The notes: a model not told the origin generated them from the sequence alone. A stretch of DNA of 59,824 nt from Chitinophagaceae bacterium (GCA_035764525.1 DASTZB010000250.1:1-59824); one strand, 5' to 3'. Counted from the first letter of the stretch, positions 23,747-54,863 are shown. Translations and numbers: made by a program.

Positions 23747-23747
23747 T

Positions 23748-41206: not shown

Positions 41207-41395
41207 TTACAGTGATTCCATTATTTTTTCGAGTTCTTCTTTGGTTTTCCCTAATTTAACCGCGAGTTTTCCCATCATCTCACCTCTCTTACCATCTTCA
41301 AACACCAGATCATCATCTTTAAGTATTGCAAATTTTTGTTTGAGCTTTTCTTTCTCCTGATTCCAGTTTCCTTTTAACCTGATAATCTTTGTCAT
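41207..41395 (-). CDS. CsbD-like general stress protein
   Basis: 62 aa ORF. Pattern: GNWNQEKEKLKQKFAILKDDDLVFEDGKRGEMMGKLAVKLGKTKEELEKIM. This matches the CsbD/YjbJ pattern GNW.Q.KG..K..W..LTDDDL....G....L.GK.Q..YG..KE. Confidence 0.75.
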   Translation of the reverse strand: MTKIIRLKGNWNQEKEKLKQKFAILKDDDLVFEDGKRGEMMGKLAVKLGKTKEELEKIMESL

Positions 41396-41457
41396 TTTGT
41401 TCTTAATTTACTTTTACTAATAATTCATTGTAAAGATGAATTTCTTTTACCCGGTAA

Positions 41458-41495
41458 ATGTTATACAATTGAATAAAAAGATTACATCATTCACA
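41458..41495 (-). promoter_or_regulatory. Shared 38-bp promoter motif, copy h (upstream of the CsbD-like gene)
   Basis: In gene orientation the sequence is TGTGAATGATGTAATCTTTTTATTCAATTGTATAACAT. The layout is 7-2-6-15-8. The motif ends 62 nt before the ATG at 41395. Confidence 0.55.
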
Positions 41496-41525
41496 TATTG
41501 CAGCAAAAAATAAGTGATCAAATGA

Positions 41526-41551
41526 ACAGTCCCTGTAAAGACAGGGACTGT
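41526..41551 (-). terminator. Perfect 11-bp hairpin downstream of the 95-aa gene (candidate terminator)
   Basis: The stem acagtccctgt / acagggactgt has a 4-nt loop (aaag). It lies about 50 nt after the stop at 41600. A T-run on the minus strand follows only after about 15 nt, so this is not a textbook terminator. It separates that gene from motif copy h. Confidence 0.5.
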
Positions 41552-41599
41552 AAACCAAAACCTACGCTATAGAAAATCAATTATATACTTGAACCACTA

Positions 41600-41887
41600 T
41601 TACCGTGTAAACTGTAAATTTTTTTTGTATTCAATGATCGTATGCAATACTTTAAGCTTTTGAATAATTTTATTTTTCAGGTCGCGGTGAAACCTGTTCT
41701 TTTGAACTTCACTCAGCGCATTTTCATAATTTATTATGGCTTCATCAAAATGCCCGTTATTTTCATATTTAAGCCCCTCCACAAATAATTCGACAGGTAG
41801 ATCTTTCTTCTTAAGAAAAAAGGAGCTGATTATTGATGCTATTAGTAATGATATCATAATAAAAGGTAAATACTGGTAAATTGTCAT
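41600..41887 (-). CDS. Hypothetical small membrane-anchored protein
   Basis: 95 aa ORF. It has an N-terminal TM helix (LPFIMISLLIASIISSFFL) and a short TPR-like helical tail (GHFDEAIINYENALSEV). Motif copy g precedes it. Confidence 0.5.
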   Translation of the reverse strand: MTIYQYLPFIMISLLIASIISSFFLKKKDLPVELFVEGLKYENNGHFDEAIINYENALSEVQKNRFHRDLKNKIIQKLKVLHTIIEYKKNLQFTR

Positions 41888-41938
41888 AAAAGGGTTTTTA
41901 TGCTATTTGTATAAAGATGAGGTCATTCAAATTCATAA

Positions 41939-41976
41939 TTGTTACAAGAATACAGTAGAATGTTACATCTTTCACA
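41939..41976 (-). promoter_or_regulatory. Shared 38-bp promoter motif, copy g (upstream of the 95-aa gene; overlaps the AraC stop codon)
   Basis: In gene orientation the sequence is TGTGAAAGATGTAACATTCTACTGTATTCTTGTAACAA. The motif ends 51 nt before the ATG at 41887. Confidence 0.55.
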
Positions 41977-42532
41977 GGTTTTCAAGCATGTTGAGTCTCT
42001 TATCACGAAGCTGTTTGAAGTGTGACGGAGTAAGGCCAGTTACTTTTTTAAACTGGGCAGAAAGATGCGCAACACTGCTATAATGCATCAGATAGGCAAT
42101 TTCAGTAAGGTTAAGCTCATTATAAACCAATAGCTCTTTTACCCGTTCAATTTTATGTGCAATAATGAATTTTTCAATCGTAGTACCCTGTACTTCTGAA
42201 AAAAGATTAGCGAGGTAAGTATAATTGTGGTTTAATTTCTGGCTTAAATGATCAGAAAAATTGATCGCTAAAGGTTCTTCTGAATAATGGATCAATTCTA
42301 CAATAACATTCTTTATTTTCTGGATCAACACACTTTTCTTGTCATCCAGTAATTCAAGTCCTGATTTCAGCAAAGCCTCTTTGAACTGATCATGCTGTTG
42401 CTCTGAAATACTTTCCATTATTTCCGCTTCGCCTAATTCCACAACAATATAATGCAGTCCCAATTTTTCCAATTCCGCTTTTACTACCATTTTGCAGCGG
42501 ATGCAAACCATGTTTTTAATATATAATTTCAA
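41972..42532 (-). CDS. AraC-family transcriptional regulator with an HMA-like N-terminal domain
   Basis: 186 aa ORF. The C-terminal AraC HTH reads LNLTEIAYLMHYSSVAHLSAQFKKVTGLTPSHFKQL. The N-terminus, MKLYIKNMVCIRCKMVVKAELEKLGL, resembles the beta-alpha-beta start of a heavy-metal-associated fold and has a C..C pair. The start codon is TTG. Confidence 0.85.
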   Translation of the reverse strand: MKLYIKNMVCIRCKMVVKAELEKLGLHYIVVELGEAEIMESISEQQHDQFKEALLKSGLELLDDKKSVLIQKIKNVIVELIHYSEEPLAINFSDHLSQKLNHNYTYLANLFSEVQGTTIEKFIIAHKIERVKELLVYNELNLTEIAYLMHYSSVAHLSAQFKKVTGLTPSHFKQLRDKRLNMLENL

Positions 42533-42683
42533 AAGACCTGCTTTGTTTGTAAATGATTCCGATTTTTAATCCCTGTTAATGAGTCATAATGCTTACTGCT
42601 GCCGACAAAACCACCTTGAATTTACTTAAAACTTTCCACACCTGATTTCTTTTTGGATTCTTTACGTATTTATATACATGAGT

Positions 42684-42716
42684 GAAAAAAAGCCGCCTTG
42701 ATTAACCAGGGCGGCT
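42684..42716 (-). terminator. Rho-independent terminator after the 201-aa secreted protein gene
   Basis: The minus strand reads agccgccctggttaatcaaggcggct followed by ttttttt. The stem is about 10 bp including one G-U pair, with a 6-nt loop. It lies 14 nt after the stop at 42730. Confidence 0.8.
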
Positions 42717-42729
42717 CTAATATTTAAAA

Positions 42730-43335
42730 TCAATAATTATATTTTACCAGTTGGCCATCACTATTATAATAGAAATATGCTGGTTTCCCTCCCAGAATAT
42801 CCTTGACCCGGAATATATTTTTTACAGTATTTGGCACTTCAATCTTTATCATATCGTCGAGCCTGGTACCCGGGCTGCGTTTGAAAATTGCATCTACAAC
42901 ATTTTGTGGCATTTCATTCCTTGTAATCAATGTTCTTGTATCTCTTCTGTCCCCATTTGCATGGTATAATGCAGTTGATCTGTAAAATCCATTTCCAAAA
43001 CTTGCTGTCCAATCTCCACGGTATTTACTCCAGCTAACATTGCCTGCATTAGGATAATCTCTTTGAAATGCAGCTCGTACTTTGGCTGGTTGATTTTTGG
43101 AATATACAGGACTCTTTCCTCCTTTATCTGAAGTGCCATCCCAGATTTTTTTATTATGCTCATCTTGTTGGTGCTTTTCATTTGCCGCTTTCTGCTTTTG
43201 GTCGCTACTTCCAGGGCTCGCTGGTTTTTCATTCTTTGATTTATCATTTCCCTTTCCGTTATCATTACTTTTTCCCTGGGAGATCATTGTTAAACTAAAT
43301 ATGAATCCCATACTTATCAAAAAAAACTTTTTCAT
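42730..43335 (-). CDS. Hypothetical secreted protein (PepSY-like C-terminal region)
   Basis: 201 aa ORF with a signal peptide (MKKFFLISMGFIFSLTMISQG). A low-complexity Lys/Asn/Gln-rich linker follows. The C-terminal region has repeated YPNA..V.W / V.....P....I patterns typical of PepSY-like lipoprotein domains. Confidence 0.55.
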   Translation of the reverse strand: MKKFFLISMGFIFSLTMISQGKSNDNGKGNDKSKNEKPASPGSSDQKQKAANEKHQQDEHNKKIWDGTSDKGGKSPVYSKNQPAKVRAAFQRDYPNAGNVSWSKYRGDWTASFGNGFYRSTALYHANGDRRDTRTLITRNEMPQNVVDAIFKRSPGTRLDDMIKIEVPNTVKNIFRVKDILGGKPAYFYYNSDGQLVKYNY

Positions 43336-43345
43336 ATTATTATTT

Positions 43346-44038
43346 TTAAAACCTGTAACCTAAAGAAAAACCAAAGCCGGTGTTTTTGGCAGAAGTTTTA
43401 TCATTCGACGAACCTTCATATTCAGGGTTGATCTTAGTAAGGCCTAATTGTGTATTTAATTGAAACGAAACTTTGTTACCAAATTCATAACCTACCAGCA
43501 TGTTAGCTCCTGCATCCATCGGCCTGATATAAACCACATCATCAGGATCGGAATTCTTCACTGTTTTTTGAAACTTTATTTTTTCACTAAGGTCGGATCC
43601 GCCACCGTCATATGTTGCCTTACCACCAATGCCAAATGCAACATAAGGACCAAATCCAAGTATCAGGTGTCCGTTTCCCAACATAGGCTTGTAAAGAAAA
43701 TTAAGTGGTAATTCCAGGTATGAAATTTTTAAAGTTGTATTAAAGGATTGGCCAAGTATAACATCTTCGCTTTTTGCACCTTTAATTGTGTAAAGCAACC
43801 CTGGTTGAAAATAAAAATCAATTCCCACCGGAATTTCTGCATTGATACCAACATTAAAACCGATCAACATATCACTTTTTAATTTATCGTCATTTTCATC
43901 CCTGCCATTAATATTCTGAAAGTTTACTCCGGCACGAAGACCAAAACTTGTACCGCCTGTATGAGACGTTTTTTGCTGCGCCTGGGAAAATATTGTTCCT
44001 AAAACCATTACTGCAATTAAACTGATTCTTTTTTTCAT
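43346..44038 (-). CDS. Outer membrane beta-barrel (porin-family) protein
   Basis: 230 aa ORF with signal peptide MKKRISLIAVMVLGTIFSQAQ. It shows alternating beta-strand patterns and ends in the OMP signature GFSLGYRF. Confidence 0.75.
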   Translation of the reverse strand: MKKRISLIAVMVLGTIFSQAQQKTSHTGGTSFGLRAGVNFQNINGRDENDDKLKSDMLIGFNVGINAEIPVGIDFYFQPGLLYTIKGAKSEDVILGQSFNTTLKISYLELPLNFLYKPMLGNGHLILGFGPYVAFGIGGKATYDGGGSDLSEKIKFQKTVKNSDPDDVVYIRPMDAGANMLVGYEFGNKVSFQLNTQLGLTKINPEYEGSSNDKTSAKNTGFGFSLGYRF

Positions 44039-44111
44039 TTTATTTTGTTTGATCTATTTTGTTAAAAAAATTGTCTTTAAAACTCATTTGATAAATAGCA
44101 TGTGATCTTTT

Positions 44112-44795
44112 TTATTTACCACCATTCTTTTCTGCTTCTTTCGCAGCCTCTGCTTTCATTTTTTCATTGGCTGAAACGAGGAATTCTACCCTACGATTTT
44201 GTGCCTGGCCATCGTCTGTGTCATTGGTATACTTAGGCGATGTTTCACCAAATCCATGAATGGTGAGTCGTGAAGTAGTGATCGCTTTTCCGGATAAATA
44301 ATAGGAAACAGTGGAAGCTCTTTCTTCTGATAATTTCTGGTTGTAACGGGTGGTTCCTTTACTGTCTGTGTGCCCCTGTACTTCAATGTTTGTATCGGGG
44401 TATTTTTGCAGAATGGCTACTAATTTATCTAAGTTTGTGCGGGCATCAGTTGTAAGATTGGATTGATCAAAGCCAAATAAGATCTTACTGTTAAACTCTA
44501 TGACGATCCCTTCTCCTACCCTAACCACTTCTGCGTCCGGAATTGCTTTTTTCATTTCTTCTGCCTGCTTATCCATTTGGTGCCCGATAACGGCACCGGT
44601 CACTCCACCTGCTGCTGCTCCAATAATAGCACCCATCGCTGTGTTACCCGCTGCTTTACCAATAACTGCGCCTACTGCCGCACCACCGGCTGTTCCTATT
44701 ACAGCTCCTTTTTGTGACTTATTCATTGTTTTACATCCTGCAGAAAAAATAGCTACTACCAAAAAACTGGTCACTAAGATTTTAAATGTTTTCAT
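44112..44795 (-). CDS. OmpA-family lipoprotein with a glycine-zipper N-terminal region
   Basis: 227 aa ORF with a lipobox (FSAGC). The Gly-zipper is GAVIGTAGGAAVGAVIGKAAG...GAIIGAAAGGVTGAVIG. The OmpA_C-like domain reads ILFGFDQSNL...IEVQGHTDSKGTTRYNQKLSEERA..V..YL...GFGE..P......GQAQNRRVEF. Confidence 0.88.
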   Translation of the reverse strand: MKTFKILVTSFLVVAIFSAGCKTMNKSQKGAVIGTAGGAAVGAVIGKAAGNTAMGAIIGAAAGGVTGAVIGHQMDKQAEEMKKAIPDAEVVRVGEGIVIEFNSKILFGFDQSNLTTDARTNLDKLVAILQKYPDTNIEVQGHTDSKGTTRYNQKLSEERASTVSYYLSGKAITTSRLTIHGFGETSPKYTNDTDDGQAQNRRVEFLVSANEKMKAEAAKEAEKNGGK

Positions 44796-44906
44796 TATGC
44801 TTGTTTAAATTGTTAATACAGTATTTTTTTACTAATAAATTTTCTTACTTGTCTCTCTGATCTTTTAATTAGAATTTCAAAACTGAGCCTGATATAAAAA
44901 TGCTAG

Positions 44907-45713
44907 TTAATTTCTTACAGGATTATAAAACTTCAATGCCTGCGGCATATATGATCTGATATTTGCAATTCTTGTTTCATCAGAAGGGTGACTGCTTAAA
45001 AACTCTGGCGGCTTTGCTCCGCCGGCCGCAGCCATCCTTTCCCAAAATGGAATTGCTTCCTGTGGATTATACCCTGCCATAGCTGAAAAGTATAGTCCGA
45101 ATTTATCCGCTTCTGTTTCTTCTTTACGTGAAAAAGGTAATGTGCCTCCCACCGTGCTTCCAATGCCATAAGCCGTCATAAAAAGATTTTGTGTTTCGGC
45201 TGGCTTACTTGACACGGCTACCTGTAATGCAACACCACCTAATTGTTGTAATAACCCCTGGCTCATTCTTTCGCTTCCATGTTGTGCAACTGCGTGGGCA
45301 ATCTCATGTCCTAATACGACAGCCAATGCAGCTTCATTTCTTGTAATAGGTAATAAACCAGTATATACTACCACTTTTCCGCCGGGCATGCACCATGCGT
45401 TTACTTCTTTATTATCTACCAGGTTAAATGCCCACTGGTATCCTTCCAGGATCGACGTTTGTCCCTGACTATCATAATATGTTTTAATAGCAGCAGCAAT
45501 ACGAGATCCCACACGGCGAACCATTTCAGCATCTTTATTGGTATTTGCATTGACAACACTATTGGCAGTCAAAAAGGTTTGATATTCTACTTTCGCCATG
45601 GATTGTAATTCAGTCTCTGATACCAGGCTTAATTGTTTACGGCCTGTTACCATGTTTTCTGTACAACTGATAAAAACAAAAACAACTAAAAGGAAAGTAA
45701 ATAATTTTTTCAT
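44907..45713 (-). CDS. M48-family zinc metallopeptidase (lipoprotein)
   Basis: 268 aa ORF with a lipobox (FISC). The zinc motif is VVLGHEIAHAVAQH, with a downstream E..AD. The layout resembles the LoiP/YcaL class. Confidence 0.85.
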   Translation of the reverse strand: MKKLFTFLLVVFVFISCTENMVTGRKQLSLVSETELQSMAKVEYQTFLTANSVVNANTNKDAEMVRRVGSRIAAAIKTYYDSQGQTSILEGYQWAFNLVDNKEVNAWCMPGGKVVVYTGLLPITRNEAALAVVLGHEIAHAVAQHGSERMSQGLLQQLGGVALQVAVSSKPAETQNLFMTAYGIGSTVGGTLPFSRKEETEADKFGLYFSAMAGYNPQEAIPFWERMAAAGGAKPPEFLSSHPSDETRIANIRSYMPQALKFYNPVRN

Positions 45714-45842
45714 TTCTAAAATTTGATTTTATAAGAAGGATGAAGTTGTCGCGAAAGCCGTTGAAGAAATACGGAAGTAATAACTATATCAACTTATATT
45801 AAATTAAGCGAGAAACGAAGATGATTCTCTTTGTGCAGAAGA

Positions 45843-45880
45843 GTGTTATACAATTAAAAAGAATAGTTGCAAGATTCACA
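45843..45880 (-). promoter_or_regulatory. Shared 38-bp promoter motif, copy i (upstream of the M48 peptidase gene)
   Basis: In gene orientation the sequence is TGTGAATCTTGCAACTATTCTTTTTAATTGTATAACAC. The motif ends 129 nt before the ATG at 45713. It is divergent from copy a, which lies 40 bp away. Confidence 0.55.
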
Positions 45881-45920
45881 GGTTTAAATAAGTATGAAAA
45901 GAACCGTAATCCCTGGAATA

Positions 45921-45958
45921 TGTGAATTGTGTAACTTATTTGCAAAACCCTGTAACAC
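45921..45958 (+). promoter_or_regulatory. Shared 38-bp promoter motif, copy a (upstream of the 97-aa membrane protein gene)
   Basis: Sequence: TGTGAATTGTGTAACTTATTTGCAAAACCCTGTAACAC. A TTTTG lies about 25 nt downstream at 45981-45985. The ATG is at 46064. Confidence 0.55.
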
Positions 45959-46063
45959 TCCTACACAGAAAGCACCTCAATTTTGTGCCATTAATAAGAA
46001 AACTCTTCATAAAAGTTGAAAAGTTAGACGACCAGGAGAAAGTCAACTTTTAAAAACCAAACA

Positions 46064-46357
46064 ATGAGTATAAAAAAAACTCTAAGGATTGGATCGCTCG
46101 TTTTGTTCATGGCGATCACTTTGCCAGCTAATTCTTCTTTAATTGCCCCTGACGCTAACTCAAGAGCTCAACAACTGGAGCAAAGACTAGAAGAAATCAA
46201 GAATCTTGATAAATCTAAAATAACAAGACTTGAAAAGAAAAATCTACGGAAAGAAGTAAAAGGAATTAAAAAAGAGTCTAAAGAGCTAAGCGGTGGAGTT
46301 TATCTTTCTGTTGCAGCTATCATCATCATTATTTTATTACTGATTTTGCTTTTATAA
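46064..46357 (+). CDS. Hypothetical small membrane protein (signal/anchor, coiled-coil, C-terminal TM)
   Basis: 97 aa ORF. It has an N-terminal hydrophobic segment (LVLFMAITLPA) and a charged helical middle (QLEQRLEEIKNLDKSKITRLEKKNLRKEVKGIKKE). The C-terminal TM segment is YLSVAAIIIIILLLILLL. Confidence 0.5.
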   Translation: MSIKKTLRIGSLVLFMAITLPANSSLIAPDANSRAQQLEQRLEEIKNLDKSKITRLEKKNLRKEVKGIKKESKELSGGVYLSVAAIIIIILLLILLL

Positions 46358-46500
46358 GATAAGTTGTAAAAACATTTAACCTGTCTTTCTGATAGTCAGC
46401 ATTTGAAAGCAACGATTCAGCTCCTTATGAAGCAAACATTACCTATGTAAATTAGAGCTCCGAATACCCGATTAAACGTTAGTCCTTTCCCTTGAGCTAT

Positions 46501-46535
46501 GACCACCTTGGTAAAAACGGGGTGGTTTCTTTTTT
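46501..46535 (+). terminator. Candidate rho-independent terminator
   Basis: Sequence: gaccacc-ttggtaaaaacgg-ggtggtt followed by tcttttttat. The loop is long, so confidence is moderate. Confidence 0.45.
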
Positions 46536-46598
46536 ATCTGCACTCAACTTTTAATTTGCCGTCGGTACTAGTCTTAACATCCATTTTATGCTATCATA

Positions 46599-46636
46599 TA
46601 TGAATGATGTAATTTATTTCAATGATTGTATAACAA
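46599..46636 (+). promoter_or_regulatory. Shared 38-bp promoter motif, copy b (in the 725-nt gene-poor gap)
   Basis: Sequence: TATGAATGATGTAATTTATTTCAATGATTGTATAACAA. Only small ORFs follow it. Confidence 0.5.
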
Positions 46637-46649
46637 TTATACTTAACAG

Positions 46650-46865
46650 GTGACAGACCTTTACCTAGATCTTTTAAAAAATCATTATTACTCCTCTTCT
46701 TCCTATTTTAATTGCTTTGGGTGTGGTTGGCGTAATTCTTGGCTTATTAACAACTACATTCCTATGGAACATAAAATTAAAGACATCTTAGATGTAGTTG
46801 CCGTGATTGTTGGTACTGCTGCAGGTATTTGGGGTATTAGTTCCCTGAAAAATCATTGTGTTTAA
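46650..46865 (+). CDS. Doubtful small ORF; if real, more likely the 33-aa peptide starting at ATG 46764 (MEHKIKDILDVVAVIVGTAAGIWGISSLKNHCV)
   Basis: The track ORF starts at a GTG only 14 nt after motif copy b, which would leave no room for a promoter or 5' UTR. The internal ATG yields a short peptide with one hydrophobic helix. No homology is recognised. Confidence 0.25.
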   Translation: MTDLYLDLLKNHYYSSSSYFNCFGCGWRNSWLINNYIPMEHKIKDILDVVAVIVGTAAGIWGISSLKNHCV

Positions 46866-47083
46866 AAATGAACGCTTTGTTTTTAAAAAAATTTCAATTT
46901 AAAATGCAATTCCTGCGCAGAAAATTGAAGATCATTTGTTGATTAAATTCAAAAAATATGAAACGATTTACTTTTCCTGGCTTTGTTATCGCACTGGTTT
47001 TTTCAGTTCTGTTTCTCATTGCATCATTTATCCTTCTTTTCCGTGATCCCGGTTAAGTATAGAAACCTTTAAAAAAATAAAAA

Positions 47084-47842
47084 TTGGTTATCAATTTAAA
47101 AAATGGTTTTGCAGAAGCAGGTAATGCTACATTATTTGTTGCGCGGTTTTTTAGAGAAGCTATTAAACCTCCTTATGAAATAAAAGAATTCTTAAGGCAA
47201 TGCTATATTATAGGATATAAATCCATGCCGTTAGTGGCAATTACTGGTTTTATCATGGGATTGGTATTAACCATTCAGTCACGTCCTACATTGGCAGAGT
47301 TTGGCGCAGAATCCTGGTTGCCAGGTATGGTGGCACTTTCATTGATACGTGAAATTGCTCCAGTGATCACAGCATTAATCTGTGCCGGAAAAATTTCTTC
47401 GGGCATTGGCGCAGAATTAGGTTCTATGAAAGTAACCGAGCAAATAGATGCGATGGAAGTATCTGCTATAAACCCTTATAAATATTTGGTAGTCACAAGA
47501 GTGCTGGCTACCACACTGATGGTGCCGCTGTTAGTTGTGTTTGCGGATGGAATTGGAATTTTAGGCGGTTATGCTGGGATTAATATTCATAGTGATGTTA
47601 CCATGTATCGCTACTTTTCACAGGTGTTATCCTCACTTGAGTTTTTGGATATTGTACCGGCTACCATTAAAACTTTTTTCTTTGGATTTTTCATTGGTTT
47701 GATTGGTTGTTACAAAGGATTTACCGCAGCCAATGGCACGGAAAGTGTTGGCAAGGCTGCTAACTCTGCGGTAGTAACCGCATCCCTTGCAATATTTATT
47801 ATAGATATGATGGCTGTACAATTAACTGACCTTTTTTTCTGA
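47084..47842 (+). CDS. mlaE: MlaE-family ABC transporter permease
   Basis: 252 aa ORF that is polytopic. Typical MlaE/YrbE segments are present: LIREIAPVITALICAGKISSGIGAELGSMKVTEQIDAMEVSAINPYKYLVVTRVLA. The start codon is TTG. Confidence 0.85.
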   Translation: MVINLKNGFAEAGNATLFVARFFREAIKPPYEIKEFLRQCYIIGYKSMPLVAITGFIMGLVLTIQSRPTLAEFGAESWLPGMVALSLIREIAPVITALICAGKISSGIGAELGSMKVTEQIDAMEVSAINPYKYLVVTRVLATTLMVPLLVVFADGIGILGGYAGINIHSDVTMYRYFSQVLSSLEFLDIVPATIKTFFFGFFIGLIGCYKGFTAANGTESVGKAANSAVVTASLAIFIIDMMAVQLTDLFF

Positions 47843-47849
47843 AATAAAA

Positions 47850-48653
47850 ATGATACAAGTAGAAACAAATACAATAAAACAATCGGTAACTGATCACCCG
47901 GGTTTTGAAATAAATAACAAACCCGGACCTGTGATAAATATAAAAGGACTGTATAAATCATTCGGAAAAAATACAGCTATATTAAAAGGGGTAGATCTTA
48001 TTGTAAAAAAAGGTGAGAACCTGGTAGTGTTAGGAAAGTCGGGTTCAGGTAAATCAGTATTAATAAAATGCCTTGTTGGTTTAGTTGCTGCCGATATGGG
48101 CGAATTAAAAGTGTTTGACACAGACATCACTAAACTGAATAACCAACAACTGAATGCAATAAGGATCAGGATCGGTTTTCTTTTTCAAAATTCAGCGTTG
48201 TATGATTCTATGACGGTGAGAGAAAATCTTTCATTTCCTTTAAAACGACATTCAAAAAAATTAACGAACAAAGAAGTTGAGCATTCGGTAAATGAAGCAT
48301 TGGAAAGTGTTGGGCTAAAACAAGCAATTGATAAAATGCCTTCCGAGTTATCGGGTGGTATGCGCAAAAGGATCGGGCTGGCACGTACACTTATATTACG
48401 TCCTGAGATCATCCTTTATGACGAACCAACAACGGGTCTGGATACAATCACTTCAAGGGAAATAAGTGAATTGATATTGCACATTCAAAAAAAATATAAA
48501 ACAACCTCGATCATCATTACTCATGATATGGCTTGTGCAAAACTTACCGGTGACAGGTTGGTGATTTTAAAAGATGGAGTGATGGTGGCAGAAGGCAAGT
48601 ATGAAACATTGGAAAATAGCGATGATGCATGGGTGCGTTCATTTTTTATTTGA
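47850..48653 (+). CDS. mlaF: ABC transporter ATP-binding protein (MlaF-like)
   Basis: 267 aa ORF. Walker A is GKSGSGKS, the signature motif is LSGGMRKR, Walker B is ILYDEPTTGLD, and the H-loop is ITHD. Confidence 0.88.
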   Translation: MIQVETNTIKQSVTDHPGFEINNKPGPVINIKGLYKSFGKNTAILKGVDLIVKKGENLVVLGKSGSGKSVLIKCLVGLVAADMGELKVFDTDITKLNNQQLNAIRIRIGFLFQNSALYDSMTVRENLSFPLKRHSKKLTNKEVEHSVNEALESVGLKQAIDKMPSELSGGMRKRIGLARTLILRPEIILYDEPTTGLDTITSREISELILHIQKKYKTTSIIITHDMACAKLTGDRLVILKDGVMVAEGKYETLENSDDAWVRSFFI

Positions 48654-48674
48654 TCATTTATAAAAAAATAAGTT

Positions 48675-49562
48675 ATGCGTAAAGAATCTGGAGGAGCATG
48701 GAAATTGGGAATTTTTGTAGTACTGGGATTAGTGCTATTTCTTTCGACCATTTATTTTGTTGGCAAGCAAAAAAATATATTTGGAAATACTTTTCACTTA
48801 AAAGCACAGTTCAAAACAGTAAGTGGCTTAAAAGTGGGAAACAATGTTCGCTTTTCGGGTATCAATATTGGCAATGTAAATGAAGTGGAATTATTAACGG
48901 ATACCTCTGTAATGGTGGACCTTGTGATCCGGAAGAAATACCAGGAGTTTATTAAAAAAGATGCAAGGGCCAGCATTGGTTCCGATGGACTGATGGGCGA
49001 CAAAGTATTAACCATTTCTCCCGGTACATCCGATAAAAGCCCGGTAAACAACGGAGATATTATCCTCACAAAAAATGCGATTGAAATGGAGGATGTAATG
49101 CTGAGCGCAAAAACCAGTGTAGATAACGCTGGCATTATTACAGCACAGCTTGCAGAATTTACCACTAAGATGAATACGGGAAATGGCGCCCTCTCAAAAC
49201 TGATCAGTGATGAAAAATTCTCTAATAGTCTGCAAAGTACACTTGTCAATCTTCAGACAGCATCTAACGAATTTGCCATGTTTACAGCCAAAATTAATAG
49301 TGGAGGATTGAGTGAATCACTTGACACGACCATGCGTAATATACAGGGAGCCACTAAAGGGCTCAACGAAAATATGGAAGCAGCAAAAAGTAATTTTTTA
49401 TTAAAAGGTTTTTTTAATAAAAAGAAAAAATCCGATGCTAAGAAAGCGGCCGAATTAAAAAAGGAGGAAGACAAAAGGAAAAAACAGCAAATTAAAAATG
49501 AGGCTGATTCAATAAAAACTGCTACGCTACTAATTCCGGTAAAAAAGATCCCAGGCGATTGA
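48675..49562 (+). CDS. mlaD: MlaD/MCE-domain protein
   Basis: 295 aa ORF with an N-terminal TM helix (LGIFVVLGLVLFLSTIYFV). The MCE domain reads FKTVSGLKVGNNVRFSGINIGNVNEVEL. A helical, Lys-rich tail follows. Confidence 0.82.
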   Translation: MRKESGGAWKLGIFVVLGLVLFLSTIYFVGKQKNIFGNTFHLKAQFKTVSGLKVGNNVRFSGINIGNVNEVELLTDTSVMVDLVIRKKYQEFIKKDARASIGSDGLMGDKVLTISPGTSDKSPVNNGDIILTKNAIEMEDVMLSAKTSVDNAGIITAQLAEFTTKMNTGNGALSKLISDEKFSNSLQSTLVNLQTASNEFAMFTAKINSGGLSESLDTTMRNIQGATKGLNENMEAAKSNFLLKGFFNKKKKSDAKKAAELKKEEDKRKKQQIKNEADSIKTATLLIPVKKIPGD

Positions 49563-49647
49563 GATCAATGATCTTATATTAATTGATCACCAGGTAAAAG
49601 CCTGTTCGAAATCCCTTACACATTGGGAAATCTATTCCCCATAAATG

Positions 49648-49685
49648 TGTGAATCATGTAATTTATTTTAAAAACTGTGTAACAC
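49648..49685 (+). promoter_or_regulatory. Shared 38-bp promoter motif, copy c (upstream of the alpha/beta hydrolase gene)
   Basis: Sequence: TGTGAATCATGTAATTTATTTTAAAAACTGTGTAACAC. A CTTTG lies at 49708-49712. The ATG is at 49751. Confidence 0.55.
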
Positions 49686-49750
49686 TTCTGCCTGAAAGAG
49701 TATTCAACTTTGAGTGATATTAAATCAATCATTACTCAATTAACAAAATC

Positions 49751-50611
49751 ATGCGCCTTATTGGTAATAATATCAACATAACTATCAATAATCTTACGGT
49801 CAGTTACAGTGACCACGGACCCGATGATGCTCCTGTTATTATCTTCATTCATGGGTTTCCGTTAAATAGATCTATGTGGGACATGCAGGTAGAAGCGCTA
49901 AAGGACAATTACAGAGTGATAGCATATGATATCCGCGGGCATGGAAACTCTGAAGCGGGTATTGATGAATTCTTTATTGACCTTTTTGTTAACGACCTTC
50001 TGCGGTTCATGAAAAAATTAAGGATTGAAAAATCAATTTTATGTGGCTTATCCATGGGCGGATACATTGCATTAAATGCAGTTTTAAGATATCCCGATCG
50101 TTTTGACGGCCTTATTTTAAATGATACACAATGTATAGCTGATACACCCGAAATAAAAGAAAACCGGTGCCAGGCAATTATCCGTATTATGAAAAATGGA
50201 GTGGAAGAGTATGCTGATGAAATTATAAATAATCTTTTTGCACCAGAATCTTTCACAAATAAGAAAAGTGCAATTTTCGCAGTAAAGAAGATGATCATAG
50301 GTACTACGAAACAATCTCTCTGTAATGCCCTGCATGCTTTGGCGGAACGCAAGGAGACCTGCGACCATCTACCGGAAATAAATATTCCTGTGCTTATCAT
50401 GGTTGGTAAAGAAGATAAAATAACGCCAATTGCCGCCGCGCAGCTAATGCATGAAAGGATATTGAATTCGAAATTGGAAATTATTCAACATGCAGGTCAT
50501 CTAAGCAACCTCGAGAATCCAACCGCATTCAATACTCATTTGGTGACTTTTTTAGAGATCGTCGGCAAAAAACCGTTTTTAATTAAGCGGTACAGATGGG
50601 AATTAAATTAA
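49751..50611 (+). CDS. Alpha/beta-fold hydrolase
   Basis: 286 aa ORF. The oxyanion region is VIIFIHGFPLN, the nucleophile elbow is GLSMGG, and the C-terminal His region is IQHAGHLSNLENP. Confidence 0.85.
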   Translation: MRLIGNNINITINNLTVSYSDHGPDDAPVIIFIHGFPLNRSMWDMQVEALKDNYRVIAYDIRGHGNSEAGIDEFFIDLFVNDLLRFMKKLRIEKSILCGLSMGGYIALNAVLRYPDRFDGLILNDTQCIADTPEIKENRCQAIIRIMKNGVEEYADEIINNLFAPESFTNKKSAIFAVKKMIIGTTKQSLCNALHALAERKETCDHLPEINIPVLIMVGKEDKITPIAAAQLMHERILNSKLEIIQHAGHLSNLENPTAFNTHLVTFLEIVGKKPFLIKRYRWELN

Positions 50612-50700
50612 TGACTACATATTTTCATCTGGGTGGCAATAGCAGTTTTTAGTGGAACGCCGCACTTAATCTGCACTAATTCTCCTGGATTCATTTAATG

Positions 50701-50738
50701 TGTGAATTGTGTAACTTATTTGAAGGATTATATAACAT
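50701..50738 (+). promoter_or_regulatory. Shared 38-bp promoter motif, copy d (upstream of the second AraC paralogue, hybrid kinase and response regulator)
   Basis: Sequence: TGTGAATTGTGTAACTTATTTGAAGGATTATATAACAT. The stretch atgtgaattgtgtaacttatttg (23 nt, beginning 2 nt upstream of the motif) is identical to the corresponding stretch at copy a. The motif ends 56 nt before the TTG start at 50795. Confidence 0.55.
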
Positions 50739-50794
50739 CTCCCGAGGCAAAATGACTCATCTTTAGCGGTACCCGGTATAAAAAGAGGAGCTAT

Positions 50795-51421
50795 TTGAAA
50801 ATATTCATTAAACACATGGTAAGCAACCGCTGTAAGATGGCGGTGAAAGAAGAGCTGAGAAAGCTTGGGCTTCATTTTATAGTCGTCGATTTAGGTGAGG
50901 TAGAGATCATGGAAAATATTTCTGCGGAACAACGTGAGCAAATGAAAGCCGCATTGTTGATTTCAGGATTTGAGTTAATGGACGACAAAAAAGCTATACT
51001 GATTGAAAAAATTAAAACTGCCGTTATTGAAATGGTTCATCATTCAGATGAAAACATTAAAATAAATTTCTCTGATTACCTGAGTGAAAAATTAAGTCAT
51101 AATTATACGTACCTGGCAAATTTGTTTTCCGAAGTACAGGGAACCTCGATCGAGCATTTCATCATTGCACACAAAATTGAGCGGATAAAAGAATTGATCA
51201 TTTATGATGAGTTGAACATTACGGAAATTGCGTGGAAGTTAAATTACAGCAGCGTTGCCCATTTATCCAATCAATTTAAGAAAGTTACTGGTCTCACTCC
51301 TTCTCATTTTAGACAACTGAAAGATAAAAGACGAAGCTCGATTGAAGACATCGGGATCCCGATCCCTTCCGGGGCAAATGGCATTGACAAAACCAAATTG
51401 ACCATTACAAAAAAACTTTAA
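50795..51421 (+). CDS. AraC-family transcriptional regulator with an HMA-like N-terminal domain (paralogue of 41972..42532)
   Basis: 208 aa ORF. It is collinear with the other paralogue (MKIFIKHMVSNRCKMAVKEELRKLGL...NYTYLANLFSEVQGTSIEHFIIAHKIERIKEL...YSSVAHLSNQFKKVTGLTPSHFRQL). The start codon is TTG. The first Cys of the C..C pair is replaced by Ser. Confidence 0.85.
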   Translation: MKIFIKHMVSNRCKMAVKEELRKLGLHFIVVDLGEVEIMENISAEQREQMKAALLISGFELMDDKKAILIEKIKTAVIEMVHHSDENIKINFSDYLSEKLSHNYTYLANLFSEVQGTSIEHFIIAHKIERIKELIIYDELNITEIAWKLNYSSVAHLSNQFKKVTGLTPSHFRQLKDKRRSSIEDIGIPIPSGANGIDKTKLTITKKL

Positions 51422-51431
51422 AACAAATAAA

Positions 51432-53435
51432 GTGGAAACCTCGAAAACACAGAAATCACAATATGCCAGGAGTTTGATAGAAGCAAGCCTGGATCCGCTG
51501 GTAACTGTCAGTACTGAAGGTAAGATCACTGACATGAATGAAGCGATGGCGAGTATTACAGGTATGACCCGCGAAAAACTTACCGGCACCGATTTCTTCG
51601 ATTACTTTACTGAACCACAAAAGGCCCGTGAAGTTTACCAGGAAGTATTTGCAAAAGGATTTGTAGCAGACTACCCTTTAACGATAAAAGATCATAAACA
51701 AACAGATGTGCTATTTAACGGCTCCGTTTATAAAGATGAGCAGGGAAGTGTACTGGGTGCAGTGGTAGTGGCAAGAGATATTACTGAACAAAAAAAGAAT
51801 GAAAAAGAATTAATAGAAGCAAAAGTGTTTGCTGAGCTGGCAACATTAATCGCTGAAGAAGCAAAAGGAAAAGCCGAAACCGCTACAGGGATAGCAGAAG
51901 ATGCTGTGAAAGCAAAACAGCAGTTTTTGTCAAACATGAGTCATGAGATCCGCACACCCATGAATGCGATTATCGGGTTTACAAAAGTGTTATTGAAAAC
52001 TGAGTTGACTGCAAAGCAAAAAGAATATCTGACTGCCATAAAATTGAGTGGCGATGCATTAATTGTGTTGATCAATGATATACTCGACCTCGCAAAAGTA
52101 GATGCAGGAAAAATGACATTTGAAGAAACACCGTTTAAAATGGCATTATCCATATCGGCCATGCTTCATATGTTTGAACCAAAGATCCAGGAAAAGAATT
52201 TAGAACTGGTAAAAGAGTATGACAACAGTATCCCTGAAGTATTGCTGGGCGACCCGGTACGTTTACACCAGATCATCTTAAATCTTGTAAGTAATGCAGT
52301 AAAGTTTACAGCAAAAGGAAAAATTACGGTAAGCGTTAATTTAATTCATGAAGATGAACAGAAAGTTACGATCGAATTTGCAGTGACCGATACTGGGATT
52401 GGAATACCAGCAGATAAAATAGAAAAGATCTTTGAAAATTTTCAGCAGGCATCCAGCCGAACATCAAGATTGTATGGAGGAACGGGATTAGGCCTTTCAA
52501 TTGTTAAACAATTAATAGAGCCGCAGGGTGGAAGCATTACTGTAAAAAGTAAAATTGATGAGGGCTCCGTTTTCAGCTTCATTTTAAATTTTCAAAAAAC
52601 AAATGCTGAAGTTGAAGCAGAAGCAGAAATACTTGAGCTGGATACAGAAATTAAAAATATTAAAGTATTGGTGGTTGAAGATATTGCCCTTAACCAGCTA
52701 CTGATGAAAACATTGTTGGATGATTTTGGATTTGAACAGGATATTGCTGCCAATGGAAAAATAGCGATCGAAAAGCTAACGTCTAAATCATATGATATTG
52801 TCCTGATGGATCTGCAGATGCCGGAAATGAATGGATTTGAGACGACTGAGTTCATCCGCAAAACCATGAATTCTAAAATCCCCATTATTGCTTTAACGGC
52901 GGATGTAACCACGGCTGACCTGGCAAAATGCAAAGCGGTTGGTATGAATGATTACATCGCAAAGCCAGTTGATGAAAGAATTTTGTATAGTAAAATAATC
53001 GGGTTAGTAAGAAAACCTGCGCTGATAAAATATAGTGAAGATAAAAGGAATGAAAACGGTCAATGCGAAAGAATAAAATGTACTGACCTCGCTTACCTGG
53101 TCCGCCGTACCAAATCTGATCCGAAACTGATGATGGAAATGATCTCACTTTACCTGGAGCAAACCCCACCCCTGATCACTATAATGAAAAAGGCCTTCAG
53201 GGATAAAGACTGGGGTTCATTGCATGCAGCTGTACATAAAATGATCCCTTCCTTTTCAATAATGGGTATCAGTACAGATTTCGAAAATATGGCAAAAAAA
53301 ATTCAGGACTATGCAAGCACACAACAATTGGCAGATGGAATACCTGACATGGTTTTACAACTTGAAAATATCTGTGCACAGGCATGTAAAGAATTGGCAG
53401 AAGAATTTAATTCGATCAAAAACGCTGGCTCATGA
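51432..53435 (+). CDS. Hybrid sensor histidine kinase (PAS, HisKA, HATPase, REC, HPt)
   Basis: 667 aa ORF. The PAS domain reads SLIEASLDPLVTVSTEGKITDMNEAMASITG. The H-box is FLSNMSHEIRTPMNAI. HATPase boxes are NLVSNAVKFT, DTGIGIP and GGTGLGLSI. The receiver reads VLVVEDIALNQ...DIVLMDLQMPEMNG...ALTA. The HPt-like tail reads LHAAVHKMIPSFSIMG. The start codon is GTG. Confidence 0.9.
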   Translation: METSKTQKSQYARSLIEASLDPLVTVSTEGKITDMNEAMASITGMTREKLTGTDFFDYFTEPQKAREVYQEVFAKGFVADYPLTIKDHKQTDVLFNGSVYKDEQGSVLGAVVVARDITEQKKNEKELIEAKVFAELATLIAEEAKGKAETATGIAEDAVKAKQQFLSNMSHEIRTPMNAIIGFTKVLLKTELTAKQKEYLTAIKLSGDALIVLINDILDLAKVDAGKMTFEETPFKMALSISAMLHMFEPKIQEKNLELVKEYDNSIPEVLLGDPVRLHQIILNLVSNAVKFTAKGKITVSVNLIHEDEQKVTIEFAVTDTGIGIPADKIEKIFENFQQASSRTSRLYGGTGLGLSIVKQLIEPQGGSITVKSKIDEGSVFSFILNFQKTNAEVEAEAEILELDTEIKNIKVLVVEDIALNQLLMKTLLDDFGFEQDIAANGKIAIEKLTSKSYDIVLMDLQMPEMNGFETTEFIRKTMNSKIPIIALTADVTTADLAKCKAVGMNDYIAKPVDERILYSKIIGLVRKPALIKYSEDKRNENGQCERIKCTDLAYLVRRTKSDPKLMMEMISLYLEQTPPLITIMKKAFRDKDWGSLHAAVHKMIPSFSIMGISTDFENMAKKIQDYASTQQLADGIPDMVLQLENICAQACKELAEEFNSIKNAGS

Positions 53436-53866
53436 AAAAAGAAAACAAAATGCACCTGTTCCTCGTTGATGATGATGCTTTATTTCTGAAATCCCTGGAA
53501 ATTGAATTTCATCATCATACGGACTTCACTGTTGAAACCTTTGCGACAGGTGAACTTTGCATTGAAAATTTATCGCACAACCCTGATGTAATTATTTTAG
53601 ATTATCATTTGAATGGCATAGATAAAAACGCAATGAATGGTATAGAAACCCTGGATAAAATAAAAGCATTAAAACCGGATATCCCTATTGTAATGTTATC
53701 CTCACAGGACAAAATAGATGTGGCGATCAGTTGCATGCATCACCGTGCTTTTGATTATGTAGTGAAAAGCGAAACGGCTTTCCTTCGTTTGCAAAAAAAT
53801 ATTACTGCCTTTTTTCATTACGAAAAAATAGAAAAAGAATTGAACTGGTATATGGCGAGAATGTAG
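53432..53866 (+). CDS. Single-domain response regulator (REC only)
   Basis: 144 aa ORF. Motifs: LFLVDDD, VIILDYHL (phospho-acceptor Asp context), IVMLSS and FDYVVK. Its ATG overlaps the kinase stop (ATGA). Confidence 0.85.
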   Translation: MKKENKMHLFLVDDDALFLKSLEIEFHHHTDFTVETFATGELCIENLSHNPDVIILDYHLNGIDKNAMNGIETLDKIKALKPDIPIVMLSSQDKIDVAISCMHHRAFDYVVKSETAFLRLQKNITAFFHYEKIEKELNWYMARM

Positions 53867-53884
53867 TCATGATATTTCCAGGAA

Positions 53885-53922
53885 TGTAAATGATGCAACT
53901 CGCACCAGCTCCCCGGGGCAAA
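53885..53922 (+). promoter_or_regulatory. Partial or weak copy (f) of the shared motif
   Basis: Sequence: TGTAAATGATGCAACTCGCACCAGCTCCCCGGGGCAAA. The first two boxes match, but the third box (TRTAACA) is absent. It lies upstream of the lipoprotein gene at 53977. Confidence 0.25.
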
Positions 53923-53976
53923 TGAATCATTCCTTATTTCGAAAATTCTCTTAACAAACAAAATAAAAATTGAAAA

Positions 53977-54651
53977 ATGAAAAAAATTAAATTAGTGATG
54001 ACTGTAGCTTTTGTGATAATGGGGTTTATTGCCTGTAAGAACTCTCCTACAATAGCAGAACAAGATGCGATGAATTTAAATAATTATGTTGATTCAGTAG
54101 AAACCCTCACCCCGGTGTATACAGCTGTTTACTTGTCCGAACTGGACAATGGTTACCAGCTAAGACTTAACAAAACGAATGATACAAAAGCTACACTGGA
54201 AGCATCGGATAAAACAAAAGTAGAGGAAAGCGAAGCACAATACGCTGTTTTAAAAAACACTTACGAAATAAAAATCAAAGAGGCGGAAAAAACTGCGGTG
54301 GTCACGACCTCGGATTACAGGCAATCACTAAGAAACAATTTATTTGGAGAAGGTATGATCGGTACCGATATGAGTTTCGGTTTTGCTAATGCCAATAATT
54401 TATTGAGCATCTACAGAAAGTTTGTGAATACGGTTGCGGATAATAGAAATAGTTATAGTCGTGAAGATTGGGATGAAATAAAAGTATTGTACGAGGCATT
54501 AGATACCCGGAAAAATACAGTTGAAAAACAACTTCCCGATGGTGATAATACAAAAATAGCCGGGTTGAAAATAAAGTTCTCTGCTATAAAAGCAACTCAC
54601 AGAGGTGGAACAAAGGGAGAAGAAAATAAAGCAGCAAAAGAAAAAGCATAA
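53977..54651 (+). CDS. Hypothetical lipoprotein
   Basis: 224 aa ORF with a signal peptide and lipobox (VIMGFIAC). The mature part is helical and charged. No family is recognised. Confidence 0.6.
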   Translation: MKKIKLVMTVAFVIMGFIACKNSPTIAEQDAMNLNNYVDSVETLTPVYTAVYLSELDNGYQLRLNKTNDTKATLEASDKTKVEESEAQYAVLKNTYEIKIKEAEKTAVVTTSDYRQSLRNNLFGEGMIGTDMSFGFANANNLLSIYRKFVNTVADNRNSYSREDWDEIKVLYEALDTRKNTVEKQLPDGDNTKIAGLKIKFSAIKATHRGGTKGEENKAAKEKA

Positions 54652-54760
54652 GAATATTTGTTATCGTAATCGTTTGCAGGGGTGGTGATGAACCCAGCAG
54701 CAATTAACGATAACTATTGTATTCACATTTTTTATCCTTCTGTAAATCGAAAGGAAAACA

Positions 54761-54798
54761 TGTGAATGATGTAAGTTTTTTCCATAGTTATATAACAC
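54761..54798 (+). promoter_or_regulatory. Shared 38-bp promoter motif, copy e (upstream of the TSP3/OmpA gene)
   Basis: Sequence: TGTGAATGATGTAAGTTTTTTCCATAGTTATATAACAC. A CTTTG lies at 54821-54825. The motif ends 65 nt before the ATG at 54864. Confidence 0.55.
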
Positions 54799-54863
54799 TT
54801 ACCATTACAGATACACCAACCTTTGTAGTTATTAATTTTTTCACAAATACTAAAACTGATATT

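Follow-up and report, generated by a model that had tools for sequence, protein, structure and literature searches.

A 59,824-nt stretch of DNA from a Chitinophagaceae bacterium (GCA_035764525.1, DASTZB010000250.1:1-59824; the whole stretch is called the window here) carries a rigid motif, TGTGAAT-N2-TGTAAC-N15-TRTAACA, in front of genes that have little in common, which raises the question of what kind of signal this is and what might read it. An initial annotation had offered two answers, namely that direct repeats form the operator of an AraC-type activator and overlap the -33 region, or that the boxes are the -35 and -10 elements of an alternative sigma factor of the extracytoplasmic function (ECF) type. 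Our contention, which rests on comparative sequence analysis, is that each site is probably an activator-dependent sigma-A promoter, controlled by tandem AraC-type activation and belonging to a general-stress and envelope regulon.

Eight sites in the window

A search that allowed up to three mismatches found eight matches to the motif in the window, each with 0-2 mismatches, and a degenerate half-site:

41459-41495, minus strand: three-box site 1
41940-41976, minus strand: three-box site 2
45844-45880, minus strand: three-box site 3
45921-45957, plus strand: three-box site 4
46599-46635, plus strand: three-box site 5
49648-49684, plus strand: three-box site 6
50701-50737, plus strand: three-box site 7
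54761-54797, plus strand: three-box site 8
53885-53899, plus strand: half-site TGTAAATGATGCAAC with boxes 1 and 2 only, upstream of a DUF6565 gene (53977-54651)

These are the eight sites, in position and strand, that the initial annotation had picked out, and their number is far from what composition would produce: 100 dinucleotide shuffles of the window gave a mean of 0.02 matches and never reached eight. All eight lie between 41.4 and 54.8 kb, while the remaining 46 kb of the window is without any site. The same set emerges from a weight matrix, a scan already suggested with the initial annotation; when trained solely on the sites of other genomes and run on the window, the matrix recovers exactly these eight with scores of 45-65 and nothing else at a score of 5 or above, including the regions upstream of MlaE and of AraC-1, one of two AraC-type genes in the window. 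Shuffled sequence never scored above zero.

The half-site had likewise been reported before as a ninth site with only the first two boxes; it is present, has no box 3, falls below the weight-matrix threshold and has probably decayed or is weak. Half-sites of this kind are uncommon, making up 13 of 154 units of boxes 1 and 2. Homologues of the DUF6565 gene stand behind full sites in three other loci, and a full site follows 25 of 61 receiver genes. Sites 3 and 4 (45844-45957) form a back-to-back pair of motif promoters, 40 bp apart and predicted to drive divergent genes, a pairing that recurs in loci L016, L028, L060, L120 and L129.

Anatomy of the promoter element

The three boxes originally described are real, but the element does not end with them: it is about 68 bp long and extends to a -7 box that had been missed. 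When the eight window sites are aligned in the direction of the downstream gene, an extra block, CA-n-CTTT-R, appears exactly 20 nt past the last A of box 3. We characterised the element further in 264 sites, comprising those of the window and those of 80 loci that were fetched through the regulator protein encoded behind site 7 (AraC-2) and not through the motif. These loci are the best 80 from at least 570 species with an AraC-2 relative, in a protein scan that used one genome per species; their regulators are 75-93% identical to the window protein and their sequence amounts to 1.26 Mb. Taking the first T of box 1 as position 1, the sequence logo has the following conserved positions, all of which lie outside the search pattern:

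Position -2: A, 92%
Position 26: A, 85%
Position 28: T, 90%
Position 29: T, 84%
Position 59: A, 91%
Position 61: C, 69%
Position 62: T, 98%
Position 63: T, 100%
Position 64: T, 84%
Position 65: G, 66%

Information content is approximately zero outside the boxes, and this includes every position after 65. An independent set was obtained by scanning public metagenome contigs with the three-box pattern alone, which gave at least 120 loci and 223 sites; the -7 box formed no part of that query and is again in place among the matches listed (T62 in 219 of 223, T63 in 221 of 223).

Across both sets (264 and 223 sites) the boxes form a 21-bp direct repeat, in which positions 5-15 read AAT-n-A-TGTAAC and positions 26-36 read A-R-T-T-R-TGTAAC, confirming the earlier remark that the two TGTAAC-like boxes are 21 bp apart. 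The distal unit is strong and includes an extra TGTG (AA-n-G-TGTGAAT-n-A-TGTAAC); the proximal unit, A-R-T-T-R-TGTAAC-A, is weaker. The rigid spacing that had been noticed in the window is near-invariant in the 80 regulator-selected loci as well: in the combined sequences boxes 1 and 2 are separated by N2 178 times and by any other distance at most twice, and boxes 2 and 3 by N15 105 times and by any other distance at most four times. From box 3 (TRTAAC) to CTTT(G/A) the distance is N24 in 136 cases, N23 in 26 and any other value in at most ten, which gives a sharper form to the (C/T)TTT(G/A) element first described as lying about 25 nt downstream.

Positions 58-65, observed as n-A-n-C-TTT-G, fit the sigma-A -7 box of Bacteroidota, TAnnTTTG, which in Flavobacterium psychrophilum is located at -12 to -5 (PMC9723704). 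Because of that location, transcription is predicted to start at motif position 70, with box 3 at -39/-33, box 2 at -60/-55 and box 1 at -69/-63; the proximal unit would then lie at -39 to -33, in place of the usual -33 TTG, and the distal unit at about -72 to -55. The TTG normally found some 19 nt upstream of the -7 box is indeed absent, positions 36-38 reading C-A-n, the end of box 3. The proximal half-site is thereby predicted to cover the -35/-33 region, its distance to the core promoter being fixed. The -7 box itself departs from consensus in a conserved fashion, since its first T (-12) occurs in only 25% of sites and position 61 (-9) is the C listed above.

Two other identities were considered for the element and rejected. 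A CRP-like palindrome, TGTGA-N6-TCACA, matches only three of five positions in its second arm and relegates the most conserved bases of the logo to a supposed spacer. An Rfam scan of 40.5-56.5 kb (E up to 1) returned only sub-threshold chance matches, none of them on a site, so that no known RNA motif accounts for the element; it also lies upstream of the predicted start and is not conserved past position 65.

Genes behind the motif

The motif is strongly biased towards gene starts. Among sites with enough downstream sequence, 394 of 459 (86%) are followed by the start of an open reading frame (ORF), compared with 47% of random positions and 56% in the opposite direction, where ORFs were called heuristically and counted if they had at least 40 amino acids and began within 250 nt of the predicted start. 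The median leader in the 264-site set is about 37 nt. Enrichment upstream of genes had been named at the outset as a check on the motif, and these proportions supply it. The families found behind the motif are as follows:

The regulator itself: 57 sites
CsbD: 42 sites, the second commonest
Ice-binding-like proteins (PF11999): 23 sites
Membrane-anchored protein of about 116 amino acids, the family of the window's 97-amino-acid protein: 17 sites
Cupin-like proteins: 16 sites, called by resemblance and not by a Pfam scan
DUF5670: 15 sites
OmpA lipoproteins: 11 sites
MlaE operons: 11 sites, directly behind the motif in genomes other than that of the window
Further families: receiver-only proteins; YtxH, Usp and DUF6600; DUF6565, DUF4382 and WXXGXW proteins
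Further families: many small hydrophobic or histidine-rich proteins

Hallmark general-stress genes (CsbD, YtxH, Usp and others) share one promoter signature. In its gene content the set appears to resemble the general stress regulons governed by sigma-B and EcfG, with an envelope and a cold or desiccation flavour. The proposal of a single stress and envelope regulon is consistent with this gene content and with the promoter bias, both being predictions from sequence.

Conservation and linkage across Bacteroidota

The promoter system is found across the phylum Bacteroidota. Close relatives of AraC-2 number in the thousands, with 77-96% identity to it among the best 120, and the best 80 loci span three NCBI classes:

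Chitinophagia: Chitinophagaceae
Flavobacteriia: Flavobacterium, Aequorivita, Chryseobacterium and Crocinitomicaceae
Bacteroidia: Prolixibacteraceae, Paludibacter and Odoribacter

There are 257 motif matches in the 1.26 Mb, where extrapolation from the window shuffles predicts about 0.4, and 77 of the 80 loci have a site. In L071, from the cultured Sunxiuqinia indica RC1_OXG_1F, for example, sites are located at 9893, 13198 and 14516. Of 79 regulator genes, 60 have a site on the same strand upstream, with a median distance of 114 nt to a conserved internal Met; the corresponding value in the window is 115. What had been seen once, an AraC paralogue behind a site, is in this way repeated elsewhere, and the motif is kept upstream of regulator orthologues, which was the conservation that the initial annotation had thought would add support.

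Linkage extends to the genes that follow. A hybrid kinase lies behind the regulator in 72 of the 80 loci, with about 75% identity, and a receiver-only gene is present in 66 with about 74%; the three-gene module, comprising an AraC-type regulator, a PAS hybrid kinase and a receiver, is about 75-80% identical across classes. When the ORFs of the 80 loci are clustered, the AraC-type gene occurs in all 80 and kinase/receiver in 69, and the next family in 18. There is no sigma factor among the 22 most widespread families near the module in these loci, as judged from representative sequences and not from a domain scan, nor do the ORF families of the 80 loci include a sigma or anti-sigma gene conserved beside it. 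Among the metagenome matches listed, 15 of the 32 loci of at least 8 kb contain the regulator or the kinase, far more than an unlinked gene would give, and about half of the sites in metagenome loci are away from the module, which indicates that the regulon is partly clustered and partly dispersed. Sites precede unrelated genes in more than 100 species of the three classes. Both the regulon and its connection with AraC had been suggested in the initial annotation; conservation throughout the phylum, and the membership of kinase and receiver in the module, had not.

The regulator, kinase and receiver

The proteins of the module in the window, and the regulator's paralogue, are encoded as follows:

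50795-51421, plus strand: AraC-2, 208 amino acids, with an HMA-like N-terminal domain, a linker helix and a double helix-turn-helix AraC domain
41972-42532, minus strand: AraC-1, a paralogue 69% identical to AraC-2
51432-53435, plus strand: hybrid histidine kinase without membrane segments, with PAS, HisKA, HATPase, REC and Hpt-like domains
53432-53866, plus strand: receiver-only response regulator, 144 amino acids, without a DNA-binding or output domain

Both AraC-type proteins match HTH_18 (E = 2.8e-17 for AraC-2 and 2e-16 for AraC-1), and neither of the putative recognition-helix segments, LNHNYTYLANLFSEVQG and NYSSVAHLSNQFKK, varies among the aligned homologues or between the two paralogues of the window, an invariance that parallels that of the DNA motif. 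The translation start of the regulator is most likely seven codons ahead of the Met that is usually annotated, the start MK[IL][FY]IK being conserved as protein, and the start of AraC-2 is probably to be revised to TTG at 50795. Its predicted structure (pLDDT about 80) consists of a beta-alpha-beta-beta-alpha-beta domain (residues 2-61), a linker helix and the DNA-binding domain. The C-terminal half of this model matches the DNA-binding domains of AdpA, MarA, SoxS and AraC (target TM-score 0.64-0.81), and its N-terminal domain matches the metallochaperones Atx1, GolB and HAH1, with a target TM-score of about 0.7 and weak E-values. The HMA-like domain has a single conserved cysteine, Cys13 of the 208-amino-acid form, in the sequence R-C-K; metal-binding HMA domains usually carry CxxC at this place.

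AraC-1 ends with a TGA stop codon that falls within box 1 (TGTGAA) of the promoter element at site 2 (41972-41976), and the same overlap is repeated in six other genomes (L003, L005, L014, L019, L040 and L076). Orthologues of the kinase contain a variable number of 20-amino-acid coiled-coil repeats, ANKELAFQN-x-EKEKRAAEL, sometimes more than ten, between PAS and HisKA; these are seen across L004-L080 (for example at L076:10607-11854), and the window's kinase has none. An extra gene between regulator and kinase in other genomes was considered and rejected, the apparent gap being the kinase's own variable repeats. The receiver appears, by eye, to keep the usual phospho-acceptor residues. NCBIfam has no dedicated family for regulator, kinase or receiver, giving only generic or far sub-threshold matches.

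A departure from the common arrangement is seen in the Paludibacter locus L007. Here an AraC paralogue (8101-8682), 54% identical and with different residues in the recognition segments, is found behind a perfect motif, and the main regulator gene has a single repeat unit (boxes 1 and 2, 9801-9843) directly at -33, before TATCTTTG. This may represent a regulatory cascade together with a rare single-unit promoter; L007:9801 is the one convincing case of boxes 1 and 2 at -33.

Proposed mechanism and alternatives

Any mechanism needs to explain why a 21-bp direct repeat should be held at a fixed distance from a -7 box that lacks its usual -33 partner. We propose that each 21-bp unit would be occupied by one AraC-type domain, the two lying in tandem along the same face of the helix, and that the binder would be the conserved regulator of 190-210 amino acids, AraC-2 and/or its paralogue AraC-1. 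The proximal subunit would stand in for the absent -33 contact and recruit RNA polymerase with sigma-A. AraC-2 would activate its own operon, resulting in positive feedback, and the co-transcribed PAS hybrid kinase, with its Hpt domain, and the receiver-only protein would supply or tune the signal, which could act through the HMA-like N-terminal domain of the regulator with its single conserved cysteine. The output would comprise CsbD, YtxH, Usp, OmpA-family lipoproteins, Mla lipid transport and M48 peptidase, as well as ice-binding-like proteins, cupins and many small membrane proteins, and we infer that these genes respond to stress. This reading develops the first of the two original suggestions, an AraC-type activator on direct repeats over -33, with which the repeat, the fixed -7 distance, the gene bias and the regulator linkage all fit. 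Further support for the assignment to an AraC-type protein comes from Bacteroides, where direct repeats of 16 + 5, 12 + 9 or 14 + 6 bp, with a period of 20-21 bp, are likewise the operators predicted for hybrid two-component systems with an AraC-type output (PMC3878776).

Several points weigh against tandem AraC-type activation. No site with three or fewer mismatches precedes 19 of the 79 regulator genes, and AraC-1, unlike AraC-2, has no motif upstream and is separated by a terminator from the unit upstream of it. The A and B boxes of a MarA or AraC half-site are about 10-11 bp apart, whereas the sub-boxes here are separated by 9 bp. The link from kinase to AraC-type protein is purely inferred, and the sole dedicated receiver has no output domain; a phosphorelay ending in Hpt normally feeds a DNA-binding response regulator. 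Finally, divergent variants are under-sampled, the search pattern having been taken from the window's own sites.

The phosphorelay is also the starting point of the alternative that survives best, in which the repeats are bound by a DNA-binding response regulator encoded away from the module, of LytTR or OmpR/PhoB type and phosphorylated from the Hpt domain of the kinase, and the AraC-type genes are mere members of the regulon. It would provide the Hpt hybrid kinase with its usual end-point, which the local receiver, having no DNA-binding domain, does not. The sites of LytTR regulators are direct repeats upstream of -35 whose period is about 21 bp, and PhoB makes up for an absent -35 by contacting sigma region 4. 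Moreover, AraC-type genes can be mere targets, since the divergent paralogue in L007 sits behind a perfect site with other recognition residues. However, the 80 loci have no conserved regulator of this kind within 10 kb of the module; the AraC-type gene is the sole DNA-binding gene of the module and mostly has its own site (the 60 of 79 cases given above), and its DNA-binding domain varies as little as the motif does. The AraC-type domains of this phylum are, in addition, predicted to act on direct repeats whose period is 20-21 bp (PMC3878776). On balance, we consider an unlinked response regulator unlikely.

The AraC-type protein might instead be a repressor, occluding the -33 region of promoters that would otherwise be constitutive and need nothing but the -7 box. 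The operator does overlap the core promoter, at a predicted -39 to -33, and promoters in Bacteroidota depend mainly on the -7 box (PMC9723704). Against this, the distance to the -7 box is fixed within 1 bp (N24 136 times, N23 26 times), from which a stereospecific contact with RNA polymerase would be expected and not simple occlusion, and the conserved departures of the -7 box from consensus (T at -12 in only 25%, C at -9 in 69%) are typical of weak promoters needing help. Most AraC-family proteins, furthermore, are activators, and repression seems to us distinctly improbable.

The second of the original suggestions, that TGTAAC is the -35 element of an ECF-like sigma factor, does not stand up to the anatomy of the element and has very little probability. 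It draws on the frequency of AAC-containing -35 hexamers among ECF promoters and on the absence of the usual -33 TTG. Yet boxes 2 and 3 are a single sequence repeated at 21 bp and not two different elements, and the true downstream element is separate from them, a sigma-A type A-n-C-TTT-G found 24 nt past box 3. That distance is too great for the spacer of an ECF promoter, in which about 16-18 nt separate -35 and -10, and there is no -10 of the CGT type. Boxes 1 and 2, at -55 to -69, would be left unexplained by a sigma factor, being beyond the -35 region that sigma normally contacts, and the 80 loci have no sigma or anti-sigma gene conserved beside the module. ECF-type promoters of flavobacteria have a CGT -10 box (PMC9723704). 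That the motif is a dispersed repeat or mobile-element remnant without any regulatory role can practically be discounted, for although many copies are clustered within a few kilobases, information content drops to zero immediately outside the boxes, orientation and position are biased to gene starts (86% compared with 47% at random), copies precede unrelated genes in more than 100 species of three classes, and there is no match in Rfam.

Beyond tandem AraC-type activation there is a wider proposal that we put forward tentatively, as a possibility that may well claim too much: that Bacteroidota have a phylum-wide general stress response run by an AraC-type activator with an HMA fold on a tandem operator, instead of by an alternative sigma factor, and gated by the PAS hybrid kinase, Hpt and receiver via a protein-protein switch on the HMA-like domain or via the conserved cysteine. 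RpoS, sigma-B and EcfG are not known from Bacteroidota.

Comparison with known systems

Tandem AraC-type activation has clear analogues, and the AraC-type tandem operator is known as a class of mechanism. The araI1-araI2 operator of the pBAD promoter in E. coli and the class II promoters of MarA, SoxS and Rob are likewise served by AraC-type regulators with a double helix-turn-helix, and AraC at araI1-I2 shares with our prediction direct-repeat half-sites of 21-bp period, a weaker proximal half-site over -35 and a fixed distance to the core promoter. In contrast to the cupin or jelly-roll sugar domain of AraC, the regulator here has an HMA-like ferredoxin fold of 65-70 residues, and unlike the AraC and MarA systems its core promoter is of the Bacteroidota -7 type, the sub-boxes are 9 bp apart and a phosphorelay operon is coupled to it. 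The targets are stress and envelope genes, where those of AraC are catabolic.

Within the same phylum, the hybrid two-component systems of Bacteroides have predicted direct-repeat operators with a 20-21 bp period, as here (PMC3878776). Each of those systems is a single membrane polypeptide with a periplasmic glycan sensor and an AraC domain fused to a receiver, whereas our case has three soluble proteins encoded separately, an AraC domain joined to the HMA-like domain and not to a receiver, and a cytoplasmic PAS domain as the sensor. The regulon here is not a polysaccharide utilization locus, and the module, at about 75-80% identity across classes, differs from the species-specific Bacteroides systems. 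PhoB and the pho-box offer a further likeness, in that tandem direct repeats replace an absent -35 and PhoB is thought to contact sigma region 4; PhoB is, however, a winged-helix response regulator with 11-bp repeats, and no such regulator occurs in the module.

In output, the closest parallels are sigma-B of Bacillus and PhyR-NepR-EcfG of Alphaproteobacteria, which share CsbD, YtxH, Usp, OmpA-like and small membrane proteins with the motif set. As in the present case, one rigid promoter signature precedes many small single-gene units and the regulator operon is positively autoregulated, the latter being a prediction here. The alphaproteobacterial system and RsbK-RsbY of B. cereus also place histidine kinases and single-domain receivers upstream, comparable with the kinase and receiver of our module. 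Those systems swap the sigma factor through partner switching, but here the core promoter looks sigma-A dependent, specificity is predicted to lie with the AraC-type protein, and there is no linked sigma or anti-sigma factor. None of the six sigma motifs in the promoter atlas of F. psychrophilum resembles our element (PMC9723704), and we found no description of the motif or the module in open-access papers and bioRxiv preprints, Rfam or NCBIfam. The domain architecture, the split phosphorelay module, the phylum-wide invariance and the general-stress-like regulon appear to be new.

The question of how general stress protection is coordinated in Bacteroidota matters because the phylum is a major part of soil, freshwater, marine and gut communities. 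What the locus offers is a 68-bp promoter signature, a candidate master regulator with invariant putative DNA-contact segments and a dedicated pair of kinase and receiver, so that regulon membership could be read directly from any Bacteroidota genome. It also provides a possible physiological context for small proteins of the DUF5670, DUF6272-like, DUF6565, DUF6600 and Thivi_2564 families, and for ice-binding-like proteins, and a promoter so rigid and portable could serve as an inducible expression tool in Bacteroidota.

Transcription units of the window

The promoter elements of the window, each running from box 1 through the -7 box, and the genes assigned to them are:

41431-41495, minus strand: promoter element 1, with the -7 box TCATCTTTA; predicted start about 41426
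41207-41395, minus strand: CsbD-like protein, 62 amino acids (Pfam CsbD, E = 4.4e-06, under the gathering cut-off)
40784-41146, minus strand: cupin-like protein, 120 amino acids, 60 nt past the CsbD gene (weak Pfam Cupin_2 match, E = 0.0045)
41912-41976, minus strand: promoter element 2; predicted start about 41907; predicted driver of the next gene
41600-41887, minus strand: 95-amino-acid membrane protein with a TPR-like segment; homologues behind six sites
45816-45880, minus strand: promoter element 3, back to back with element 4; predicted start about 45811
42730-45713, minus strand: four-gene unit behind element 3, ending at a hairpin (42691-42716) with a T-run
44907-45713, minus strand: M48 peptidase, first gene of the unit
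44112-44795, minus strand: Gly-zipper/OmpA lipoprotein, same unit
43346-44038, minus strand: outer membrane protein beta-barrel, same unit
42730-43335, minus strand: 201-amino-acid protein, last of the unit
45921-45985, plus strand: promoter element 4; predicted start about 45990; predicted driver of the next gene
46064-46357, plus strand: 97-amino-acid membrane-anchored protein, of the family found behind the motif at 17 sites
46599-46663, plus strand: promoter element 5; predicted start about 46668
46690-46865, plus strand: small membrane protein gene of the Thivi_2564 family, frameshifted, behind element 5
49648-49712, plus strand: promoter element 6; predicted start about 49717; predicted driver of the next gene
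49751-50611, plus strand: alpha/beta hydrolase
50701-50765, plus strand: promoter element 7, putative autoregulatory site, with AraC-2, kinase and receiver downstream; predicted start about 50770
54761-54825, plus strand: promoter element 8; predicted start about 54830; predicted driver of the next gene
54864-55928, plus strand: TSP3-repeat/OmpA protein, with a probable revised start at ATG 54864

Element 1 probably drives the CsbD-like gene and, with it, the cupin gene. The distances from sites to start codons given in the initial annotation hold roughly, but three of the starts need revision. Strong intrinsic terminators, with 10-bp G+C-rich stems and T-runs, are found at 42691-42716 (minus strand) and 46501-46527 (plus strand); because these two delimit the M48 unit and the unit of the 97-amino-acid gene, neighbouring motif-bearing units are insulated from each other.

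Element 5 probably drives the small gene of the Thivi_2564 family together with MlaE, the ABC ATPase and MlaD (47084-49562), no terminator being predicted between the element 5 unit and 47084. Compared with its homologue in L002, the small gene has residues 2-17 and 46-53 in one frame and residues 18-41 in another, and is either a pseudogene or affected by homopolymer sequencing errors. A hydrophobic ORF of 33 amino acids (46958-47059) precedes MlaE.

The part of the window before the motif-bearing region contains an array of ten consecutive large ORFs on the minus strand (1528-35940; 640-3085 amino acids), within which there is no copy of the motif. The four ORFs of the array that were scanned encode soluble histidine kinases in which SnoaL_3 or TPR domains form the N-terminal part; no tandem repeat is present at the DNA level in these upstream kinase genes. 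The ORF of 3085 amino acids (14540-23797) has about 2700 residues without a Pfam match and consists there of protein repeats of about 170-190 amino acids, each ending in RFLDLQKAEAQ-x-REA-x-IEAALERVR-x-R-x-MAM.

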